A DNA stretch of 64,000 nt from Oscillospiraceae bacterium (GTDB taxonomy: Bacteria; Bacillota; Clostridia; Oscillospirales; UBA929), in the NCBI GenBank assembly GCA_009782215.1, contig WRKO01000003.1, positions 66,514 to 130,513 of the forward strand, given 5' to 3'. Positions 708-62,911 of the stretch are shown in pieces. How positions within the stretch are numbered: the stretch's first letter is position 1; every line of letters starts with the position of its first letter. The notes below the pieces were generated by a model. It did not search any database. It was not told the origin of the DNA and worked only from the letters and a program-made list of their open reading frames with translations. The position numbers and the translations under genes were made by a program.

Positions 708-3393
<2,686 letters not shown>

Positions 3394-3484: not shown

Positions 3485-4225
3485 TTACTGTACCGCTCTG
3501 AACAAATCCTCCACCTGAAAGTAGCTGTCCGGCACCGCGCCGACGATGACCGTCTCCGCGATGGAAACCTGCGTGCCGACCTGTGTGCCGATGCTGTAGC
3601 CCGGCAGCAGGACATGGACGTCAACGGTGATATCCATCATAATCTGATGGCGGGTCTGGTTGATGCCGGCGGCGGAAAACTGATTGGAAAACCCGGCGCT
3701 CACCGTGCCGAGGGGGACGATTTTCAAGGGAATCCTCGGCCCCCGCCCGCTGAAGATATCGCTGTTGATGAGGTTGCCCGCCGGGATGGACAATCCGGCG
3801 GTGTCAATCCGCTCAAGGGAGAGCAGGACTTCCTCGGTGATATCGGCGCGGAGGCGGTTGACCGAGATGATATCGGTCTTGAGGGCGGTGATTTGGCCGT
3901 ATATATCCTTTTCAAAGAAAACAAGGCTGCCGTAGGTCACATTGTCGTCGGTAATCCGCCTGACAATGGCCTGATTGATGACGCGGGACGCCAGACGATC
4001 CACCTCCACCCGCGCCATCTGCGTCATAATGGGACGCAAATGGTTGCCGATGTAATAATTGCCGAGGAAAAACACCGCCAGACCGGCGGCAATCGCTGCC
4101 AGCAACGGAAAACGCCGGATACGCCCCGGCGCGGCCCTGCGGCGGCGGAGACGGAATCGGACAGGAAGCCCGCGCGCCCGCGCGGCGCGGAGCCTGAGCG
4201 AAAAACGATGGCTGAAACGGCGCAT
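3485..4225 (-). CDS. yunB: sporulation protein YunB
   Basis: Basic N-terminus (MRRFSHRFSLRLR...), a single TM helix (FPLLAAIAAGLAVFFLG), then the YunB-type body (..IMMDITVDVHVLLPGY..IVGAVPDSYF). The longer ORF-track form (to 4360) runs through the 21-bp repeat into AT-rich island DNA and is rejected. Confidence 0.75.
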   Translation of the reverse strand: MRRFSHRFSLRLRAARARGLPVRFRLRRRRAAPGRIRRFPLLAAIAAGLAVFFLGNYYIGNHLRPIMTQMARVEVDRLASRVINQAIVRRITDDNVTYGSLVFFEKDIYGQITALKTDIISVNRLRADITEEVLLSLERIDTAGLSIPAGNLINSDIFSGRGPRIPLKIVPLGTVSAGFSNQFSAAGINQTRHQIMMDITVDVHVLLPGYSIGTQVGTQVSIAETVIVGAVPDSYFQVEDLFRAVQ

Positions 4226-4256
4226 GGCATGACCCCCCCACTGCAATCTATGCGGG

Positions 4257-4277
4257 GGCTGCGGGGGGTTATGCCCT
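4257..4277. repeat. left copy of a perfect 21-bp direct repeat GGCTGCGGGGGGTTATGCCCT
   Basis: Identical 21-mer recurs at 6969..6989. This copy lies about 30 nt upstream of the yunB start. Confidence 0.9.
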
Positions 4278-4504
4278 TTGTGGCGTTTTCTTTGCCTAAT
4301 TCTTGCGAGTATTTCTTTATATCCTTGTCGGTAGTTTGCAAATTCGCCAGTAGATTGCAATAAACTCCCAAACTGAACAAAGGTTTTTGGAGCGTTCTTA
4401 ATCAGGTGTGGCTATTTGTGTTCGCCACTGCGATGGTTGTGACATCGCCTAAGTGAGAGTTTAATTGATTGACGTCCCTCGCGCATATAATCATTACATA
4501 GCTC

Positions 4505-4534
4505 TTGACTTTAATTATAAGGTTGTGTTACAAT
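4505..4534 (+). promoter_or_regulatory. sigma-A-type promoter for island genes A and B
   Basis: TTGACT, 18 nt, TACAAT, with TGn extended -10. Confidence 0.5.
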
Positions 4535-4604
4535 ATAACGAGCAATGGGGGTAATAAAAATATATCCGCCCTCCAAAAGAGTATTACTACAGGAGGACAA
4601 GTTT

Positions 4605-4928
4605 ATGATGATGGTAAGTAAGATTATTGCAGGTAAATACGCTGGTTGTAAGATGCTCTATAGTAAAGTTTACGGTCACATAAAGATAGAATCTACTGGT
4701 GTTTATGTAGACAATAAGACCGTGGAATCTGTCGAATTCGGCGGTAGCGAAGACGACTTCAGAACGGGACAAGCTGTTGTCGGAGCCGCGTTGCTCGGCC
4801 CCATAGGATTGCTAGTTGGCGGAAACAACAAAAGGTATAGTGTTATACTTAACTGGAGAGATGGCGAGAGGTCACTTTGTGACCTAAACAAACAGGAATA
4901 CGAAGCGATACAAATGCGGTTTTTTTAG
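4605..4928 (+). CDS. small hypothetical protein (107 aa) with a Gly-zipper-like hydrophobic segment
   Basis: ATG at 4605 preceded by AGGAGG. The sequence contains GQAVVGAALLGPIGLLVGG followed by a short beta-like segment (YSVILNWRDGERSL). No family recognised. Confidence 0.55.
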   Translation: MMMVSKIIAGKYAGCKMLYSKVYGHIKIESTGVYVDNKTVESVEFGGSEDDFRTGQAVVGAALLGPIGLLVGGNNKRYSVILNWRDGERSLCDLNKQEYEAIQMRFF

Positions 4929-4963
4929 AGTGAGTCACAGCAATACTAGGTGGAAAGAAAGGG

Positions 4964-5494
4964 TTGGTTTTCGTGGCTCTTATTAATTGCCCTGAATGTC
5001 AAAAAGAAATATCAGACAAATCCCCGGCGTGCGTTGGATGCGGTTTCCCGATTGTACAACCCGTTGATGAACTATATAAGCTAACACTAGACCATAGAGA
5101 GATTCGCCCTTCGGTGGCGGCTGAGTTTGACCGATACCTCATGGATGTTATGGGTGTTTGGGAGAACGACGATGCGTACTCTAAACTCTATAGTATGTTA
5201 GTTGCTTTAGACGACTTCCCTCAAGTTATTCTCGAAAATATCTCTTACGAAGACGCTATAGCAACACAAAGCAAAATCGAATCATTCGGTGGTAGAACAT
5301 CAATCTACCGCATGAGTGAGCGTGTCGTAAAGAAGGATATCGCCGGCGTCGCAAAATGCCCCACCTGTAGCTCCACCAAATTAAAACAAATCGGAGCAGC
5401 CAACAAAGTAGGAGCCGCAGCGCTGTTCGGGGTTCTAACTGTTAGTCATGTGGGGAAGACGTTCAAGTGTGGGGACTGTGGGTATAGTTGGTGA
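4964..5494 (+). CDS. double zinc-ribbon protein, unknown function
   Basis: N-terminal CPECQ...CVGCG ribbon. C-terminal CPTC...(hydrophobic VGAAALFGVLTV)...CGDCG is a split ribbon with a LITAF-like arrangement. The middle segment FPQVILENISYEDAIATQSKIESFGG loosely resembles the L7/L12 C-terminal fold. The start may instead be GTG at 4973. Confidence 0.6.
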   Translation: MVFVALINCPECQKEISDKSPACVGCGFPIVQPVDELYKLTLDHREIRPSVAAEFDRYLMDVMGVWENDDAYSKLYSMLVALDDFPQVILENISYEDAIATQSKIESFGGRTSIYRMSERVVKKDIAGVAKCPTCSSTKLKQIGAANKVGAAALFGVLTVSHVGKTFKCGDCGYSW

Positions 5495-5563
5495 GTGTGG
5501 GTTGTTGGCAAAGATGTGAGGCTGGCACTATTTCATTTGTTGCTGAAATAAGTAGTCGATTAG

Positions 5564-6673
5564 TTATAGTCCAAGCCTCTTTGCACTAGCAACGATTTCT
5601 CCGTAAATCTCATCATGAGTATCTAAATCAAAGTCGGCTAAAAAACCAAGATCGGCTTCCCAGATAGGTATAGAGTGATAGTGTCTAGGGTTATTTTTGT
5701 TACGCCACAACAAGTAGTTTAGATGCTTAGATATTTCATATTTTTTCATTTGCTTACAAGAAAGAATAGTGGCAAGCCTTGTACGCCTAGTATCTTCAGA
5801 AATTTTTGTATTATATCCAAGTATATTCAATAGAGAACGCTCACTACCTTCAGAAATAAGGTAATATCCTTTGTGTTCATTGTAATAGATTTTCCCGTCT
5901 TCAGAAAATACTTTCACAAGAAGATTATGATGCCTTTCTTGATATATTTGAAATATGTTATCTTCAACAAAATATTTATCACAGTGTAAACACCCATGTA
6001 CATATATATTTTCAACACTTACATTTCCCTTTGAATTACTACACAATACTTTGGCCTTGACCTCCTTAATATCGTGACCATTTCTATAACAGTGAACAAA
6101 CCCGAAACACAAACGGATTTCTTTGATAACATTTTGCAAATCAAGACAGTTTATTTGATTATTGTCACGAGTAAAAATATGATTCTTTGCGTAAAAATCA
6201 AACCTACTTTTCAGAGAGATATAAGCGTCTTCGACAGATATATTTCTCCCGCAATTTTGGGCTACATGAATTATGTGGGAAATAACACAAAAATCGAGTT
6301 CTCTCAGATAGACATCAAACGAGACAATACGCGGAACAAATGATGCGCTATCAATACTATATGTGAACATATTAAAGAGATGACTCTTCTTAATAACAGA
6401 ATAATTAATATAGATAGAGTATTCTTCAGAAAATAACACCTTGTGTTCTTTTAAGAACTTACTCAGCGGCGGTTTGAAGCAAACTATCGCGGAATAAGGA
6501 TTTAGCATTTTATCATCGCCTTGTATTGATGCAGAACATTTCTGAAGATATTTTATGTATTTTTCAGAAGATGTGCAATATACGTTATATAGTTCATCAT
6601 AGAGTCCAAGAGCGATTAACTTTTTTGTCGTAACAACCCTCTCGTTATTATTAAGGTAATTTCTGACACTCAC
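5564..6673 (-). CDS. hypothetical protein (about 369 aa), no recognisable family
   Basis: AT-rich codon usage typical of the island. ORF-track start 6694 (TTG) lies only about 10 nt from the predicted TSS. GTG at 6673 follows GAGGGAGAGAG and is preferred. Contains a possible Zn site (HC...CLHC) and a basic C-terminal segment. Confidence 0.55.
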   Translation of the reverse strand: MSVRNYLNNNERVVTTKKLIALGLYDELYNVYCTSSEKYIKYLQKCSASIQGDDKMLNPYSAIVCFKPPLSKFLKEHKVLFSEEYSIYINYSVIKKSHLFNMFTYSIDSASFVPRIVSFDVYLRELDFCVISHIIHVAQNCGRNISVEDAYISLKSRFDFYAKNHIFTRDNNQINCLDLQNVIKEIRLCFGFVHCYRNGHDIKEVKAKVLCSNSKGNVSVENIYVHGCLHCDKYFVEDNIFQIYQERHHNLLVKVFSEDGKIYYNEHKGYYLISEGSERSLLNILGYNTKISEDTRRTRLATILSCKQMKKYEISKHLNYLLWRNKNNPRHYHSIPIWEADLGFLADFDLDTHDEIYGEIVASAKRLGL

Positions 6674-6703
6674 ACTAACTCTCTCCCTCAGCAATTTGCA
6701 ACA

Positions 6704-6732
6704 ATATTATCACAGAAGAGAGTACGTGTCAA
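6704..6732 (-). promoter_or_regulatory. sigma-A-type promoter for the 369-aa island gene
   Basis: Reverse strand reads TTGACA, 17 nt, TAATAT, with TGn. Confidence 0.5.
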
Positions 6733-6771
6733 CCATCACAACCCCAATCCACACCAATCAATACATCTATA

Positions 6772-6870
6772 CCAGACCAAATTAGAGAACTGGCAAAGCT
6801 GAAAGACGAAGGGTTGTTGACGGAGGAAGAGTTTGAGATTAAGAAGAGTGAGCTTCTGGCGAAGATGTAA
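6772..6870 (+). pseudogene. start-less SHOCT-domain remnant
   Basis: Frame translates to PDQIRELAKLKDEGLLTEEEFEIKKSELLAKM*, a classical SHOCT (short C-terminal domain) sequence. The open frame (from 6679) has no ATG/GTG/TTG, and its upstream part is occupied by the opposite-strand promoter. Not in the ORF track. Confidence 0.5.
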
Positions 6871-6871
6871 A

Positions 6872-6900
6872 AATCCCGCCCATAGGCAGGATTCTTTATT
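6872..6900 (+). terminator. rho-independent terminator after the SHOCT remnant
   Basis: AATCCCGCC / GGCAGGATT stem (one mismatch), 4-nt loop, followed by CTTTATT. Confidence 0.55.
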
Positions 6901-6968
6901 GAAACCATATGGCTTCCACACCACCCCACTCGTGCGCAGCCCATTTATGTTGTCAATGGGTATTTTAC

Positions 6969-6989
6969 GGCTGCGGGGGGTTATGCCCT
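6969..6989. repeat. right copy of the perfect 21-bp direct repeat
   Basis: Identical to 4257..4277. On the reverse strand it supplies the last two codons and stop of yggS (AGG GCA TAA) plus 12 nt of 3' flank. Confidence 0.9.
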
Positions 6990-7625
6990 CGCGCCGAACA
7001 GGGCGGAGCCGACGCGGATCATGTTGGCTCCGGCGCGGATGGCCGCCTCGTAGTCGTCGCTCATGCCCATTGACAGGATTTCAAGCCCATACGCCCGATA
7101 GAGGTCAAACAGCCGCCGCATCTGCTCAAAATACCGCGTTTCACCCGGCGGGGGGATGCACATCAGCCCCCGTACGCGGAGGTTCTTCAGCGCGGACATG
7201 GTGTTCAGCGCGGACGGCAGGCTATCCGGCGCGAAACCGCCCTTTGTTTCCTCCAGAGCGATGTTCACCTGCGCCAGCACGGGCTGGACAACCCGCAGCT
7301 TCCCGGCGCAGTTGTCGATTGTCTCCGCCAGCGCCATTGAGTCCACCGAATGGATGAGCGATACCCTTCCGACGACCTTGGCTGCCTTGTTTTTTTGCAA
7401 GCGGCCTATAAAATGCAGCGGCACGCCCCCGTAGGCGCCCAGCGCGTCTTTTTCCACAAGTTCCTGCACACGGTTCTCCCCCGCCGCGTCCACTCCGGCG
7501 GCAACCGCTTGGCGCACGGCTTCCGCCGTCTGGGCTTTGCACGCCGCCACCAGCGTGACGTTTCCGCCGCCGCCCGCCTGCTCGGCACGCCGCCGTATCT
7601 CTTTTATGTTTTGGGCGATGTTCAA
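6981..7625 (-). CDS. yggS: YggS-family pyridoxal-phosphate homeostasis protein
   Basis: 214 aa. Matching segments: VTLVAACKAQ (PLP lysine region), GENRVQEL, HFIGRLQKNKAAKVV, IHSVDS, LSMGMSDDYE.AI..GA..IRVGSALFG. Confidence 0.9.
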   Translation of the reverse strand: MNIAQNIKEIRRRAEQAGGGGNVTLVAACKAQTAEAVRQAVAAGVDAAGENRVQELVEKDALGAYGGVPLHFIGRLQKNKAAKVVGRVSLIHSVDSMALAETIDNCAGKLRVVQPVLAQVNIALEETKGGFAPDSLPSALNTMSALKNLRVRGLMCIPPPGETRYFEQMRRLFDLYRAYGLEILSMGMSDDYEAAIRAGANMIRVGSALFGARA

Positions 7626-26103: not shown

Positions 26104-26340
26104 TCATTTCTCAATTTCGATTCCACAGTATCTGCACCGATATACTTGACGAACGGATTGCCCAGAACTATGACCTTGCCATGTGTATGTTTTTGTGCCA
26201 ATATACTCCGTGTCGTTATGTATACATGAAAGTCTCTTTTCCTTTTCTTTCTTTGCATTTTTTATGATAAAATATATCGGCAATATACCCATCGACAGAA
26301 TAATTAACACGCCGATAATCCCAGTCGCAACCTCACCCAT
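26104..26340 (-). CDS. small membrane protein (78 aa) with a C-terminal Cys pair
   Basis: GAGGAGG SD. TM helix GIIGVLIILSMGILPIYFII, a basic linker, and C...CRYC. Has its own promoter. Confidence 0.5.
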   Translation of the reverse strand: MGEVATGIIGVLIILSMGILPIYFIIKNAKKEKEKRLSCIHNDTEYIGTKTYTWQGHSSGQSVRQVYRCRYCGIEIEK

Positions 26341-26461: not shown

Positions 26462-26845
26462 TTAAAACACACATTGAACATCATACTTTTGGATGTCTTC
26501 ATCCGCGGTTATGAGCGTCATATTTTCGGCGAGGGCAGTTGCGATAATGAGCCTGTCGAACGGGTCGCGGTGGTGAAGCGGCAGGGTAAAAAGCCGTTCT
26601 ATGTGTTCGTCCCGTATGGGCAGGACGTTAAAGTAATTGTCGTTTATAAGTTGGCGCAGAGCTGAAAAACCGCCGAGAAATTTATATTTACCGATATTCA
26701 TTTTAAGCGCGACTTCCCATAACGAAACGACACTGACGAAGCATTGATTCGTAGGACTGAAAATATTTGATTTGGCTTTATCGGACAGCTTAATATCGTT
26801 TTCAAACAGCCAAAGCACTATTTGAGTATCAAGTAGACATTTCAT
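26462..26845 (-). CDS. vapC: PIN-domain toxin (VapC family)
   Basis: 127 aa. LLDTQI at the N-terminus, SLWEV, and DPFDRLIIATA..LITAD are typical PIN acidic-residue motifs. 4-nt overlap with the upstream antitoxin. Confidence 0.85.
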   Translation of the reverse strand: MKCLLDTQIVLWLFENDIKLSDKAKSNIFSPTNQCFVSVVSLWEVALKMNIGKYKFLGGFSALRQLINDNYFNVLPIRDEHIERLFTLPLHHRDPFDRLIIATALAENMTLITADEDIQKYDVQCVF

Positions 26846-27081
26846 TCCATATACTTCCTTAACTCTTCAAGGGGGGCGTTGAAGTCGTCGGCTGTCCATG
26901 TTTTACCTTTCATGCAGCCGAACAGAGCCTTTCGTCTTTCAACAATTTCTTCGGGTGTTATAGGGTTTGTCATAGGTTTAGGCTCTACCATAACCATGTC
27001 GCGCAGGAAAATGCTAACCGCCCTCAAAGTGTTTTCCGGCAGCAGTTCGATGTCTCTGTGCAGTTGTTGTCTGAGTTCCAT
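26842..27081 (-). CDS. type II antitoxin partner of VapC
   Basis: 79 aa, translationally coupled to the PIN gene. Its position and size are typical of an antitoxin. Confidence 0.65.
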   Translation of the reverse strand: MELRQQLHRDIELLPENTLRAVSIFLRDMVMVEPKPMTNPITPEEIVERRKALFGCMKGKTWTADDFNAPLEELRKYME

Positions 27082-61887: not shown

Positions 61888-62487
61888 TTATTCCCATCTA
61901 AATTCGGGGTCATTCTTTTTCAAACCTTTTGGTATCTTGTCTGTTCCCTTTTTATATTGTGTTATTCCAATAATTAACCCTAATAGGGAAAAAGAAACGA
62001 GAATTGAAACGGGTAAATACTTTAAATATTCAATATCATTTGTAAAATAAGAAATTACAAGCATTAGCAAAAAGCCAAATACTAAACCGCCTGCCGACCA
62101 ATTTATTAATGTCTGTGTTGAGCGGCTATCCCATGATTGCTTTTTATTGCAAAACGGACATATCCCAAGAAGATTATTCCATATTTTCCCACCCGCGCCT
62201 TCTTCATATACCCCCGCCGCTTCTTTCATCATCGAAATATAATTTTTTACTTCAGCATATGATTTTATTTTCTCATAGCCTATTTGTAATTTTTTATTTG
62301 CTTCATCTTGTAAAGCCGTTGTTTCTTCGGGAGTTAATGATATGGTAGACGTGCTTTTCCTCAAACATGCTGAACGGGTAACCATTTCTGATTTCCAATC
62401 AGTTGTTTTTCCGCAATGTTCACAAATAAAACGATAATAAAAATTACGACTTGCGGAAACGGAAAACTCTTTATAATGGCTTGACAT
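61888..62487 (-). CDS. hypothetical Zn-ribbon membrane protein
   Basis: AT-rich ORF with CEHCG...CPFC Cys pairs and two C-terminal TM helices. Start at M6 of the ORF-track entry or at 62502. Confidence 0.5.
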   Translation of the reverse strand: MSSHYKEFSVSASRNFYYRFICEHCGKTTDWKSEMVTRSACLRKSTSTISLTPEETTALQDEANKKLQIGYEKIKSYAEVKNYISMMKEAAGVYEEGAGGKIWNNLLGICPFCNKKQSWDSRSTQTLINWSAGGLVFGFLLMLVISYFTNDIEYLKYLPVSILVSFSLLGLIIGITQYKKGTDKIPKGLKKNDPEFRWE

Positions 62488-62911
62488 ATATGCTCCTTTC
62501 AAAATTATCCAAATCTCTAAGATTTATATCATCATATTTTTTGAGCATTTCATTATTATAAAAAACCTCTATGTTCCCGGACGCATCTCCAAAATAATCA
62601 ACACCTCTATACGCCTTAAACGAATACCCTAATTTTATCCATTCTTCGTGGGGCAGAATACGAAACCATTTCCAAAAACCCAACGGCGGTATGCTTCTGA
62701 CTACAGCATTGGCGGAAGTAATAAACTTATCGTCTTTTGAAGTGCTTAAATCGCGCAATATGTTAAAATCAAGTTCCCTTTCATCTTCGTTTACATTGCT
62801 ATAACTTTCAGGCGAAATACTGCCGCACTCTTTACATCTGCTTCCCCTGTCCGAAGAATAAGCTCCATAGTGGCGACAGCCGCACTTACAAACCCAGTTC
62901 ATAATTTTCAC
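62471..62911 (-). CDS. hypothetical Zn-ribbon protein
   Basis: 146 aa. CKCGC...CKECG N-terminal Cys cluster. SD GAGGTG. Confidence 0.5.
   Translation of the reverse strand: MKIMNWVCKCGCRHYGAYSSDRGSRCKECGSISPESYSNVNEDERELDFNILRDLSTSKDDKFITSANAVVRSIPPLGFWKWFRILPHEEWIKLGYSFKAYRGVDYFGDASGNIEVFYNNEMLKKYDDINLRDLDNFERSIYVKPL

Follow-up and report, generated by a model that had tools for sequence, protein, structure and literature searches.

Introduction

How does a short, AT-rich segment of DNA come to sit between two host genes of an Oscillospiraceae bacterium, and what might the three genes that it carries do there? The segment, hereafter the islet, lies within a stretch of 64,000 nucleotides (the window; assembly GCA_009782215.1, contig WRKO01000003.1, positions 66,514 to 130,513), whose numbering is used throughout, and its genes are termed A, B, and C. 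A first-pass annotation, made from the sequence alone, had described them as the cargo of an island and as a three-gene module, a candidate accessory or defence-type system. Our analysis shows that recombination at a 21-bp core, which overlaps the yggS stop codon and is now duplicated, placed 2.69 kb of AT-rich DNA between yunB and a yggS-like gene; that the cargo of this islet belongs to phage accessory ("moron") gene families; and that gene C ends in a new domain composed of a CHCC zinc ribbon and a helical region. Morons of prophages are independently transcribed genes among the phage late genes, and often act in superinfection exclusion or defence. The B-type and C-type genes are found side by side in five deeply diverged lineages, and it is this recurrent pair, in addition to the islet itself, that calls for an explanation.

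The islet and its insertion at the 3′ end of a yggS-like gene

The insert body (4278-6968; 2,691 bp, 39.1% GC) is enclosed by two copies of a perfect 21-bp direct repeat, GGCTGCGGGGGGTTATGCCCT, which resembles the core of an attachment (att) site. The left copy (4257-4277) lies 31 bp upstream of the start (4225) of yunB, the left-hand neighbour, recognised by PF09560; the right copy (6969-6989) takes in the final codons and TAA stop codon of the right-hand neighbour, a yggS-like gene on the minus strand (6981-7625) identified by PF01168. Even with three mismatches allowed, these are the only two copies in the 64 kb, and shuffled sequences are expected to hold none. The GC content drops exactly at the repeats, from 64.7% and 64.3% in the 300 bp outside them, and the earlier description of the cargo as foreign is upheld both by this contrast (39% against 64% in the flanks) and by the 21-bp repeats. 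The islet is, in short, a segment of foreign composition bounded by direct repeats, one of which stands at the 3′ end of a host gene, and such a layout is the signature of site-specific integration at a gene 3′ end.

When the insert and one copy of the repeat are deleted in silico, a compact yggS-yunB arrangement with a 44-bp spacer can be read from the sequence, and the expected junction of the empty site would be ...ATGCGGG-GGCTGCGGGGGGTTATGCCCT-CGCGCCGAAC.... Searches of Pfam, NCBIfam, and PHROGs found no tyrosine or serine recombinase among A, B, and C, and no other open reading frame (ORF) of at least 40 aa with such features lies between the repeats. A further gene is represented by a plus-strand 3′ fragment (6775-6870, with its SHOCT domain at 6775-6858 and its stop at 6868-6870) that matches PF09851 with 34.7 bits against a cutoff of 27 (E = 1.4e-8); no ORF was called there, and the SHOCT gene is truncated, since its frame has no start codon. 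As it retains no recombinase gene and only part of the SHOCT gene, the islet is most plausibly what is left of a larger integrative element of temperate-phage type, now immobile.

Remnants of this general kind have precedents. The CIME-like elements (cis-mobilizable elements), described in streptococci together with integrative and conjugative elements (ICE), are what remains, between att repeats, of integrative elements that no longer have an integrase. The islet shares with them its perfect direct repeats, one over the 3′ end of a conserved gene, its foreign composition, and its want of a recombinase; it differs in its very small size (2.7 kb), in that no cognate integrase or parent element was identified, and in that no empty site was recovered. 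Its composition is itself uneven, with 43% GC in gene A, 46% in gene B, and 33% in gene C, and the gap between gene C and A/B suggests a mosaic origin. By blastn, the islet DNA resembled no GenBank phage and no PLSDB plasmid, and Rfam had no match over 4000-7300.

Gene C and its C-terminal domain

Gene C (5564-6673, minus strand) encodes 369 aa from a GTG start behind GAGGGAG, and its exact protein (P0001) is present in the JGI part of the protein collection. A word-indexed search returned a single relative, P0002, with 47% identity over the C-terminal half, and exhaustive phmmer comparison with 1.84 billion representatives returned 417 matches at E<=1e-3, each of them a cluster representative at 50% identity. 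What is conserved in this family is the last ~180 residues, namely, a CHCC zinc ribbon followed by a three-helix region, with a near-invariant C/H/C/C set and the motifs ES.L...GYN, Arg-x3-Leu, and A..KW..D. The possible HC...CLHC metal site that had been pointed out in gene C proves to be this conserved C/H/C/C set, as seen across 150 representatives. The basic, helix-turn-helix (HTH)-like C-terminus described along with it fared less well: a three-helix region is indeed conserved there, but searches detected no HTH family in it.

In nearly all family members the domain is C-terminal, at a median of 11 residues from the end, and what precedes it is variable. The N-terminal helical domain of gene C itself is common to ~16 representatives of ~340 aa each. 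Among 92 representatives with long extensions, the N-terminal domains include LRR_5 (4), Macro (3), DUF7479 (3), Sel1 (2), RNase III-like (2), PIN_4, dsrm, RMMBL, MqsA_antitoxin, and DUF6558; most extensions match none. AlphaFold2 modelled gene C with a predicted local distance difference test (pLDDT) value of 73.5 over the full length and 86.2 for the domain (predicted template modelling score, pTM, 0.72), and the domain model folds as a beta-hairpin zinc ribbon, a helix, a small sheet, and a three-helix bundle. Foldseek returned no significant match in the PDB for either model, and none in BFVD for the domain model. The domain is likewise absent from Pfam, NCBIfam, PHROGs, and PADLOC, and profile searches of the PDB with the full-length and domain alignments gave only noise of C2H2 type. 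In tblastn against GenBank phages, neither gene B nor gene C found a match.

Gene B and its family

Gene B ends at 5494 on the plus strand, as had been noted before; its start, placed earlier at TTG 4964 (176 aa), could be there, but GTG 4973 yields the N-terminus MALINCPEC that is typical of the family, and the gene is given here as 4973-5494 (173 aa). The exact protein is deposited in NCBI as FWG72_02295, from an Oscillospiraceae metagenome-assembled genome (MAG). It consists of an N-terminal CPEC...CxxC zinc ribbon, a degenerate middle resembling the C-terminal domain of bL12, and a C-terminal split ribbon, CPTC-(22 aa, Gly/Ala-rich)-CGDC. Database searches found 46 homologues, most of them with 97-100% coverage and ~30% identity, and at least 470 relatives are present in IMG/VR. 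Gene B matches phrog_2546 (1.7e-5) and has the N-terminal [AM]LI[NK]CPEC...C..CG and C-terminal CP.CGS...C..CGY.W ribbons of that type. In the family alignment A3, the CPEC, C..C, CP.C, and C..C elements are invariant. Conservation resides in the two ribbons, the N-terminal one and the split one at the C-terminus, KCPTCGS...(~20 residues)...C.NCGY.W, and the middle is variable.

The likeness of this middle to ribosomal protein L7/L12, to which the first-pass annotation drew attention, is genuine in homologues but marginal in the islet protein. In the lineage of P0153/P0159, the middle is a bona fide bL12 C-terminal domain, with 59.8 bits and 3.2e-16 against PF00542 for the homologue at locus L002, and phmmer with E. 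coli L7/L12 gives 3e-13 and 2.8e-11. Gene B of the window, by comparison, reaches PF00542 only at E = 0.086 (13.6 bits against a gathering cutoff of 25.9) and hhalign only at a probability of 5%, and phmmer with E. coli L7/L12 finds nothing; its membership in bL12 was rejected. The paired B proteins of loci L108 and L114 do not match PF00542 either. Phage-encoded proteins with a bL12 domain have been described, and a part in modulating translation has been suggested for them (Mizuno et al., 2019; PMC6375957). In the B family, such a domain is embedded in a larger phage protein and is present in some homologues and absent in others, a pattern that agrees with the one these authors report for proteins of other phages. 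The described proteins differ in coming from phages of Proteobacteria and in having no zinc-ribbon frame, and the middle of the islet protein remains under the Pfam threshold.

The C-terminal split ribbon had been likened to LITAF. As in LITAF/SIMPLE, two CxxC pairs are separated by ~22-25 Gly/Ala/Leu-rich residues, and the relatives at loci L070 and L074 carry a clear glycine zipper, GFSGGKALAGAVLVGGVGILAGTIG, in this position. Insertion into the membrane is, however, doubtful for the islet protein: the insert IGAANKVGAAALFGVLTVS has a 19-residue hydropathy of 1.39, below the thresholds for a transmembrane (TM) helix, and contains Asn and Lys; Pfam zf-LITAF has no match to gene B at E<=1; and the loop of the paired B protein of L114 is polar rather than hydrophobic. 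The analogy is a good description of the split-ribbon layout in the B-type relatives and a weak one for the islet protein itself.

In three relatives (L070:6004-6540, L074:4238-4762, and L087:6010-6552), the B-type N-terminal ribbon occurs together with a C-terminal TM helix, a segment resembling bL12 (…MGIKEAKDYVDKL… in L074), and a split ribbon whose halves stand on either side of a glycine zipper of 25 residues; these proteins probably represent a membrane-anchored variant of the B family.

Genes B and C as a recurrent pair

The five lineages in which B-type and C-type genes are adjacent comprise the window, where the two are convergent, and four others in which they stand in tandem, with gaps of 18 bp (L002-L008, the lineage of P0153/P0159), 26 bp (L108), 446 bp (L114), and 6 bp (L119/L120, P0180). 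Between lineages, the B proteins are 28-33% identical and the C proteins 22-31%, the latter in the C-terminal domain only; because of this low identity, the linkage of B and C would be either ancient or formed repeatedly. In all four lineages outside the window, B lies directly upstream of C and the cassette is opposite in strand to the giant tail-type genes that surround it; the genes flanking the phage cassettes are minus-strand genes of 1,400-2,200 aa, with a PhageMin_Tail gene in addition at L119. Morons that are expressed independently usually stand out in this way, by an orientation opposite to that of the late genes.

The first-pass annotation had staked its module on the co-localisation of homologues in other genomes, and for B and C this is what the five lineages show. 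The third gene does not belong with them, as no homologue of A stands beside B or C elsewhere; what survives of the three-gene module is thus a pair. At locus L006, a neighbour of B was considered as a gene of A type and rejected, as it has no similarity to A.

Two further observations concern the surroundings of these genes. At L119:6853-7734 and L120:6064-6936, the B-C cassette has a PemK-family toxin gene and a gene with a Spo0A_C domain as its immediate neighbours. A 176-kb phage of human faecal origin (L115:5264-6513; MT835469.1) encodes a small multi-TM protein, other than B, upstream of its C-domain gene, and a DUF3800 protein follows on the other strand.

Gene A and its glycine zipper

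Gene A (4605-4928, plus strand) follows the ribosome-binding site AGGAGG and encodes a small PH-like protein of 107 aa with an inserted glycine zipper, GQAVVGAALLGPIGLLVGG; the exact protein is FWG72_02290 in NCBI, again from an Oscillospiraceae MAG. The Gly-zipper segment noticed at first reading is real, as judged from a match to phrog_20920 (3.8e-11) and from a match, albeit only a weak precomputed one, to PF27000 (PH_gly_zipper). In a word-indexed search of 5.8 billion proteins, gene A found only itself. Its sole annotated relative is gp01 of the Geobacillus (Thermus) phage phiOH2, with which it aligns over 96% of its length at 32.5% identity, the Gly zipper included. In phiOH2, gp01 stands at the genome end, directly after the holin and endolysin genes, and the spot behind the lysis cassette is a classical position for phage accessory genes. 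The record of gp01 bears the label "small-conductance mechanosensitive channel"; our results do not support this MscS annotation, and PF27000 is a family without an assigned function.

The zipper of gene A has a 19-residue Kyte-Doolittle hydropathy of 1.59, a borderline value for insertion into membranes. A jackhmmer search started from A led to the B-type phage proteins of L070, L074, and L087 through this one segment only, and the shared zipper sits there between the CxxC dyads of the split ribbon, as CPKCHS..GFSGGKALAGAVLVGGVGILAGTIG..CLKCGH. The A and B-type proteins thus share a glycine-zipper module, phrog_2546 matching both. Literature searches returned nothing on PH_gly_zipper, nor on a phage module that combines a zinc ribbon with a glycine zipper.

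Expression signals of the islet genes

All three ORFs that had been called are present in the window, and the exact A, B, and C proteins are found in databases as well. Each ORF has the full length typical of its family, a good ribosome-binding site, and a near-consensus extended -10 promoter. The promoters lie where the first-pass annotation put them. That of the A-B unit (4505-4534, plus strand) reads TTGACT, an 18-nt spacer with TG, and TACAAT; that of gene C (6704-6732, minus strand) reads TTGACA, a 17-nt spacer with TG, and TAATAT, and overlaps the 5′ end of the SHOCT fragment. With 10/12 matches each, they are the two best sigma-70-like sites in 4200-7100, a region whose total of 10 promoter-like sites is not above that of shuffled sequences (7.5 +/- 2.7).

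Between the convergent stop codons of B and C, an AT-rich hairpin with a 7-bp stem (5529-5550) forms in the minimum-energy fold, as had been supposed, but the region is no more stable than shuffled sequences (z -0.76 and -1.0) and a terminator scan does not report it. The hairpin is possibly a weak bidirectional terminator, and is not statistically distinctive.

A candidate conflict module

What would such a set of genes do in a chromosome? In the mechanism that we propose, A-B and C would be expressed in the host from their own sigma-70-type promoters, as a lysogen-expressed conflict module that acts by abortive infection or by superinfection exclusion. The split ribbon at the C-terminus of B and the C-terminal domain of C would pair with each other, an interaction proposed because these two parts are constant across all pairs. 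A, and possibly B, may associate with the membrane through their Gly-rich hydrophobic segments, and the variable N-terminal half of the C-family proteins, occupied in relatives by RNase, Macro, or LRR domains, may provide the effector or sensor. B and C would then constitute an undescribed two-gene conflict module of gut Firmicutes phages, and the islet a domesticated chromosomal copy that protects its host or kills infected cells; we offer this proposal tentatively, and consider it rather doubtful as it stands.

The comparison with prophage morons is instructive in both directions. The islet and the phage cassettes resemble them in having their own promoters, in running opposite to the tail genes in four phage lineages, in encoding small proteins predicted to be of membrane type, and in being AT-rich relative to the host; they differ in that A, B, and C belong to no characterised exclusion or defence family. 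Profile searches of Pfam, NCBIfam, PADLOC, and PHROGs placed none of the three in a functional family, and Foldseek found no significant fold for gene C; the first-pass statement that no known defence domain is recognisable holds against PADLOC.

Chromosomal homologues of gene C are found in suggestive company. At L001, the gene upstream of P0002, the closest homologue, is the C-terminus of a Type IIG restriction-methyltransferase (PADLOC, 1.2e-52); at L094, the neighbours include AbiEi (2.3e-74), AbiEii (2.1e-83), and an HD protein; at L090, among the neighbours are a protein part of which is Cas5-like and a Type I methyltransferase; and at L110:1302-2027, a gene of the uracil-DNA glycosylase (UDG) superfamily (PF03167, 3.5e-8) lies immediately downstream of a close homologue with 55% identity in the domain.

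The L001 locus has features of its own. P0002 lies between the intact 3′ end of the Type IIG restriction-modification (RM) gene and a decayed 99-nt duplicate of it that is 73% identical and carries an in-frame stop (L001:378-476 and L001:1854-1952); the next gene starts in an ATPase-like manner (…LRLVNFKCF…), and the GC content of the intact RM 3′ copy (59%) is higher than elsewhere on the contig. The locus looks like the gain of a cassette by recombination within an RM locus. L001 and L112/L113, the latter a second assembly of the window locus, come from ENA assemblies with neighbouring accession numbers (ERZ27257302 and ERZ27257348), and, given these numbers, the rare clade of C may be confined to a single habitat.

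Several results weigh against a conflict module, or against the unity of the islet as one. No homologue of A stands beside B or C in any other fetched locus. Most B-type genes stand without C: the best 80 IMG/VR loci with a B gene have no C-domain gene within 6 kb (0/80), and B-type genes without a C-domain gene also occur at L006 and L116-L118; seen from the side of C, B is adjacent in 4 to 5 of ~17 sampled lineages, and most C-domain loci have no B. The B and C genes of the window are convergent rather than tandem and differ in GC content (46% vs 33%), and by this order and difference they may have been brought together secondarily. In three Clostridium species, a syntenic C-domain gene lies among ordinary genes, which fits a role there other than defence. 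PADLOC-DB v2.0.0 gave 0 matches for A, 0 for C, and for B only Cas12a at E 0.15, which is noise. Last, the empty yggS-yunB site by which the insertion might be dated was not recovered, an exact look-up of the yggS-like protein having led only to contigs of this genome.

On balance, a phage-derived remnant with a B-C accessory module of conflict type is the reading that we favour, although, taken as a whole, we give it slightly less than an even chance. Its parts are not equally secure: the structural and evolutionary ones are highly probable, and a function in defence or exclusion, suggested by genomic context, is possible but doubtful.

Alternative explanations

The alternative that survives best holds that B-C and the related phage genes serve the life cycle of the phage, through host takeover or the modulation of translation, and that the chromosomal copy is a leftover. 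The bona fide bL12 domain of some B-family members (PF00542 at 3.2e-16; phmmer at 3e-13) speaks for it, since phage proteins with this domain are proposed translation modulators (PMC6375957), as do the embedding of the pair in the structural-gene regions of large phages and the fusion of the C domain, on its N-terminal side, to modules connected with RNA (RNase III-like, dsrm, PIN, and RMMBL). However, the cassette runs opposite in strand to the late genes at every phage locus; the bL12 domain is absent or degenerate in most paired B proteins (no match at L108 and L114, E 0.086 in the window); and chromosomal homologues stand beside RM and Abi genes. We regard a benefit to the phage as unlikely, though not negligible.

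It is decidedly unlikely, in our judgement, that the islet is simply inert, a recent and decaying fragment whose ORFs are intact for want of time. Such a fragment would be expected to look much as the islet does, with no integrase, a truncated SHOCT gene, a composition that has not drifted to that of the host, and an exact gene set carried by this one genome only. Yet all three ORFs are of full length when compared with their families, and all three retain good ribosome-binding sites and near-consensus extended -10 promoters.

A toxin-antitoxin-like addiction pair seems improbable; in it, the toxin would be B or A, acting on the membrane, and C would serve as a regulator or antitoxin with an MqsA-like zinc ribbon and helical part. 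The resemblance to MqsA/YgiT is one of plan: in both, a CxxC/H, beta-hairpin, CxxC ribbon is followed by a helical domain, and a small gene precedes that of the ribbon protein, as in the phage pairs with gaps of 6-26 bp and in mqsR-mqsA. Foldseek aligned the C ribbon locally with the N-terminal domain of MqsA (49 residues, root-mean-square deviation [rmsd] 3.2-4.1 A, probability 0.3-0.57), which is suggestive only; hhalign put the two ribbons in the same register; one C-family member matches Pfam MqsA_antitoxin at 3.7e-6; and the upstream partner at L115 is a small multi-TM protein. Against this, the hhalign comparison falls short of significance (E 0.071, probability 0.8%), the Foldseek matches have E-values >1, and neither HTH_XRE nor any other DNA-binding family was detected in C. 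The C proteins are also much larger (270-390 aa) than MqsA/YgiT, with variable N-terminal halves that themselves carry RNases, and the hydrophobic segment of B falls below TM thresholds. The specific assignment of gene C as an MqsA/YgiT antitoxin, with a YgiT ribbon and an XRE-type HTH, was rejected in view of the non-significant hhalign result, the missing HTH family, and a Foldseek likeness confined to the ribbon.

There remains the idea that gene C, as an unconventional recombinase (a possibility raised at first reading) or as a homing enzyme, mobilised the islet; it can be set aside as extremely improbable, for although C is the only large ORF between the repeats, P0002 lies between the Type IIG RM 3′ end and its 73%-identical 99-nt duplicate, and the top Foldseek matches are large serine integrases, these matches are non-significant and without meaning (TM-score 0.07-0.18, rmsd >20 A, E 7e-3 to 0.2), Pfam, NCBIfam, and PHROGs assign C to no family of recombinases, transposases, or nucleases, the conserved residues form a zinc site and GYN/R/W..D rather than a known catalytic set, the family occupies many fixed, non-mobile contexts with varied N-terminal fusions, the two insertion targets (yggS and the Type IIG RM gene) are unrelated, and the L001 duplicate, which has no perfect core, is equally explained by homologous recombination between RM loci.

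Significance and neighbouring features

A prophage scar that carries moron genes is a well-known kind of object, and, if the islet is without function, it is an ordinary one. The B-C pair and the C-terminal domain of C are, as far as our searches of libraries and literature show, undescribed. Should the pair be functional, it would add a new domain and a two-gene architecture to the phage-borne accessory or defence cassettes of gut Clostridia, in which few such systems have been tested. The B-C module is well-defined and widespread, and is a real accessory module rather than a recognisable defence system. The C domain, in turn, is widespread (417 representatives), modular (RNase, Macro, and LRR fusions), and unannotated, such that a single functional assay would annotate hundreds of clusters. 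The islet also illustrates how small a carrier may be: a fragment of 2.7 kb without an integrase holds intact phage cargo, promoters included, at a housekeeping locus.

Some further features of the window deserve mention. Close to the islet, between ligA and yunB, the minus strand encodes a multi-pass membrane protein of ~250 aa (2641-3390) that has host-like GC content and no Pfam family. A second AT-rich pocket (41% GC) holds, on the minus strand at 26465-27081, a PIN-domain toxin gene (PF01850, 5.7e-21) and a DUF2281 antitoxin-like gene, beside a small ORF (26104-26340) for a 78-aa protein with a TM segment and a CxxC motif. A third pocket, on the minus strand at 61888-62911, has 36.5% GC and holds two ORFs (204 aa and 146 aa) in which CxxC pairs occur; both are without a Pfam family and, by hidden Markov model (HMM) search, without likeness to B or C, and the 204-aa ORF has two predicted TM helices as well.

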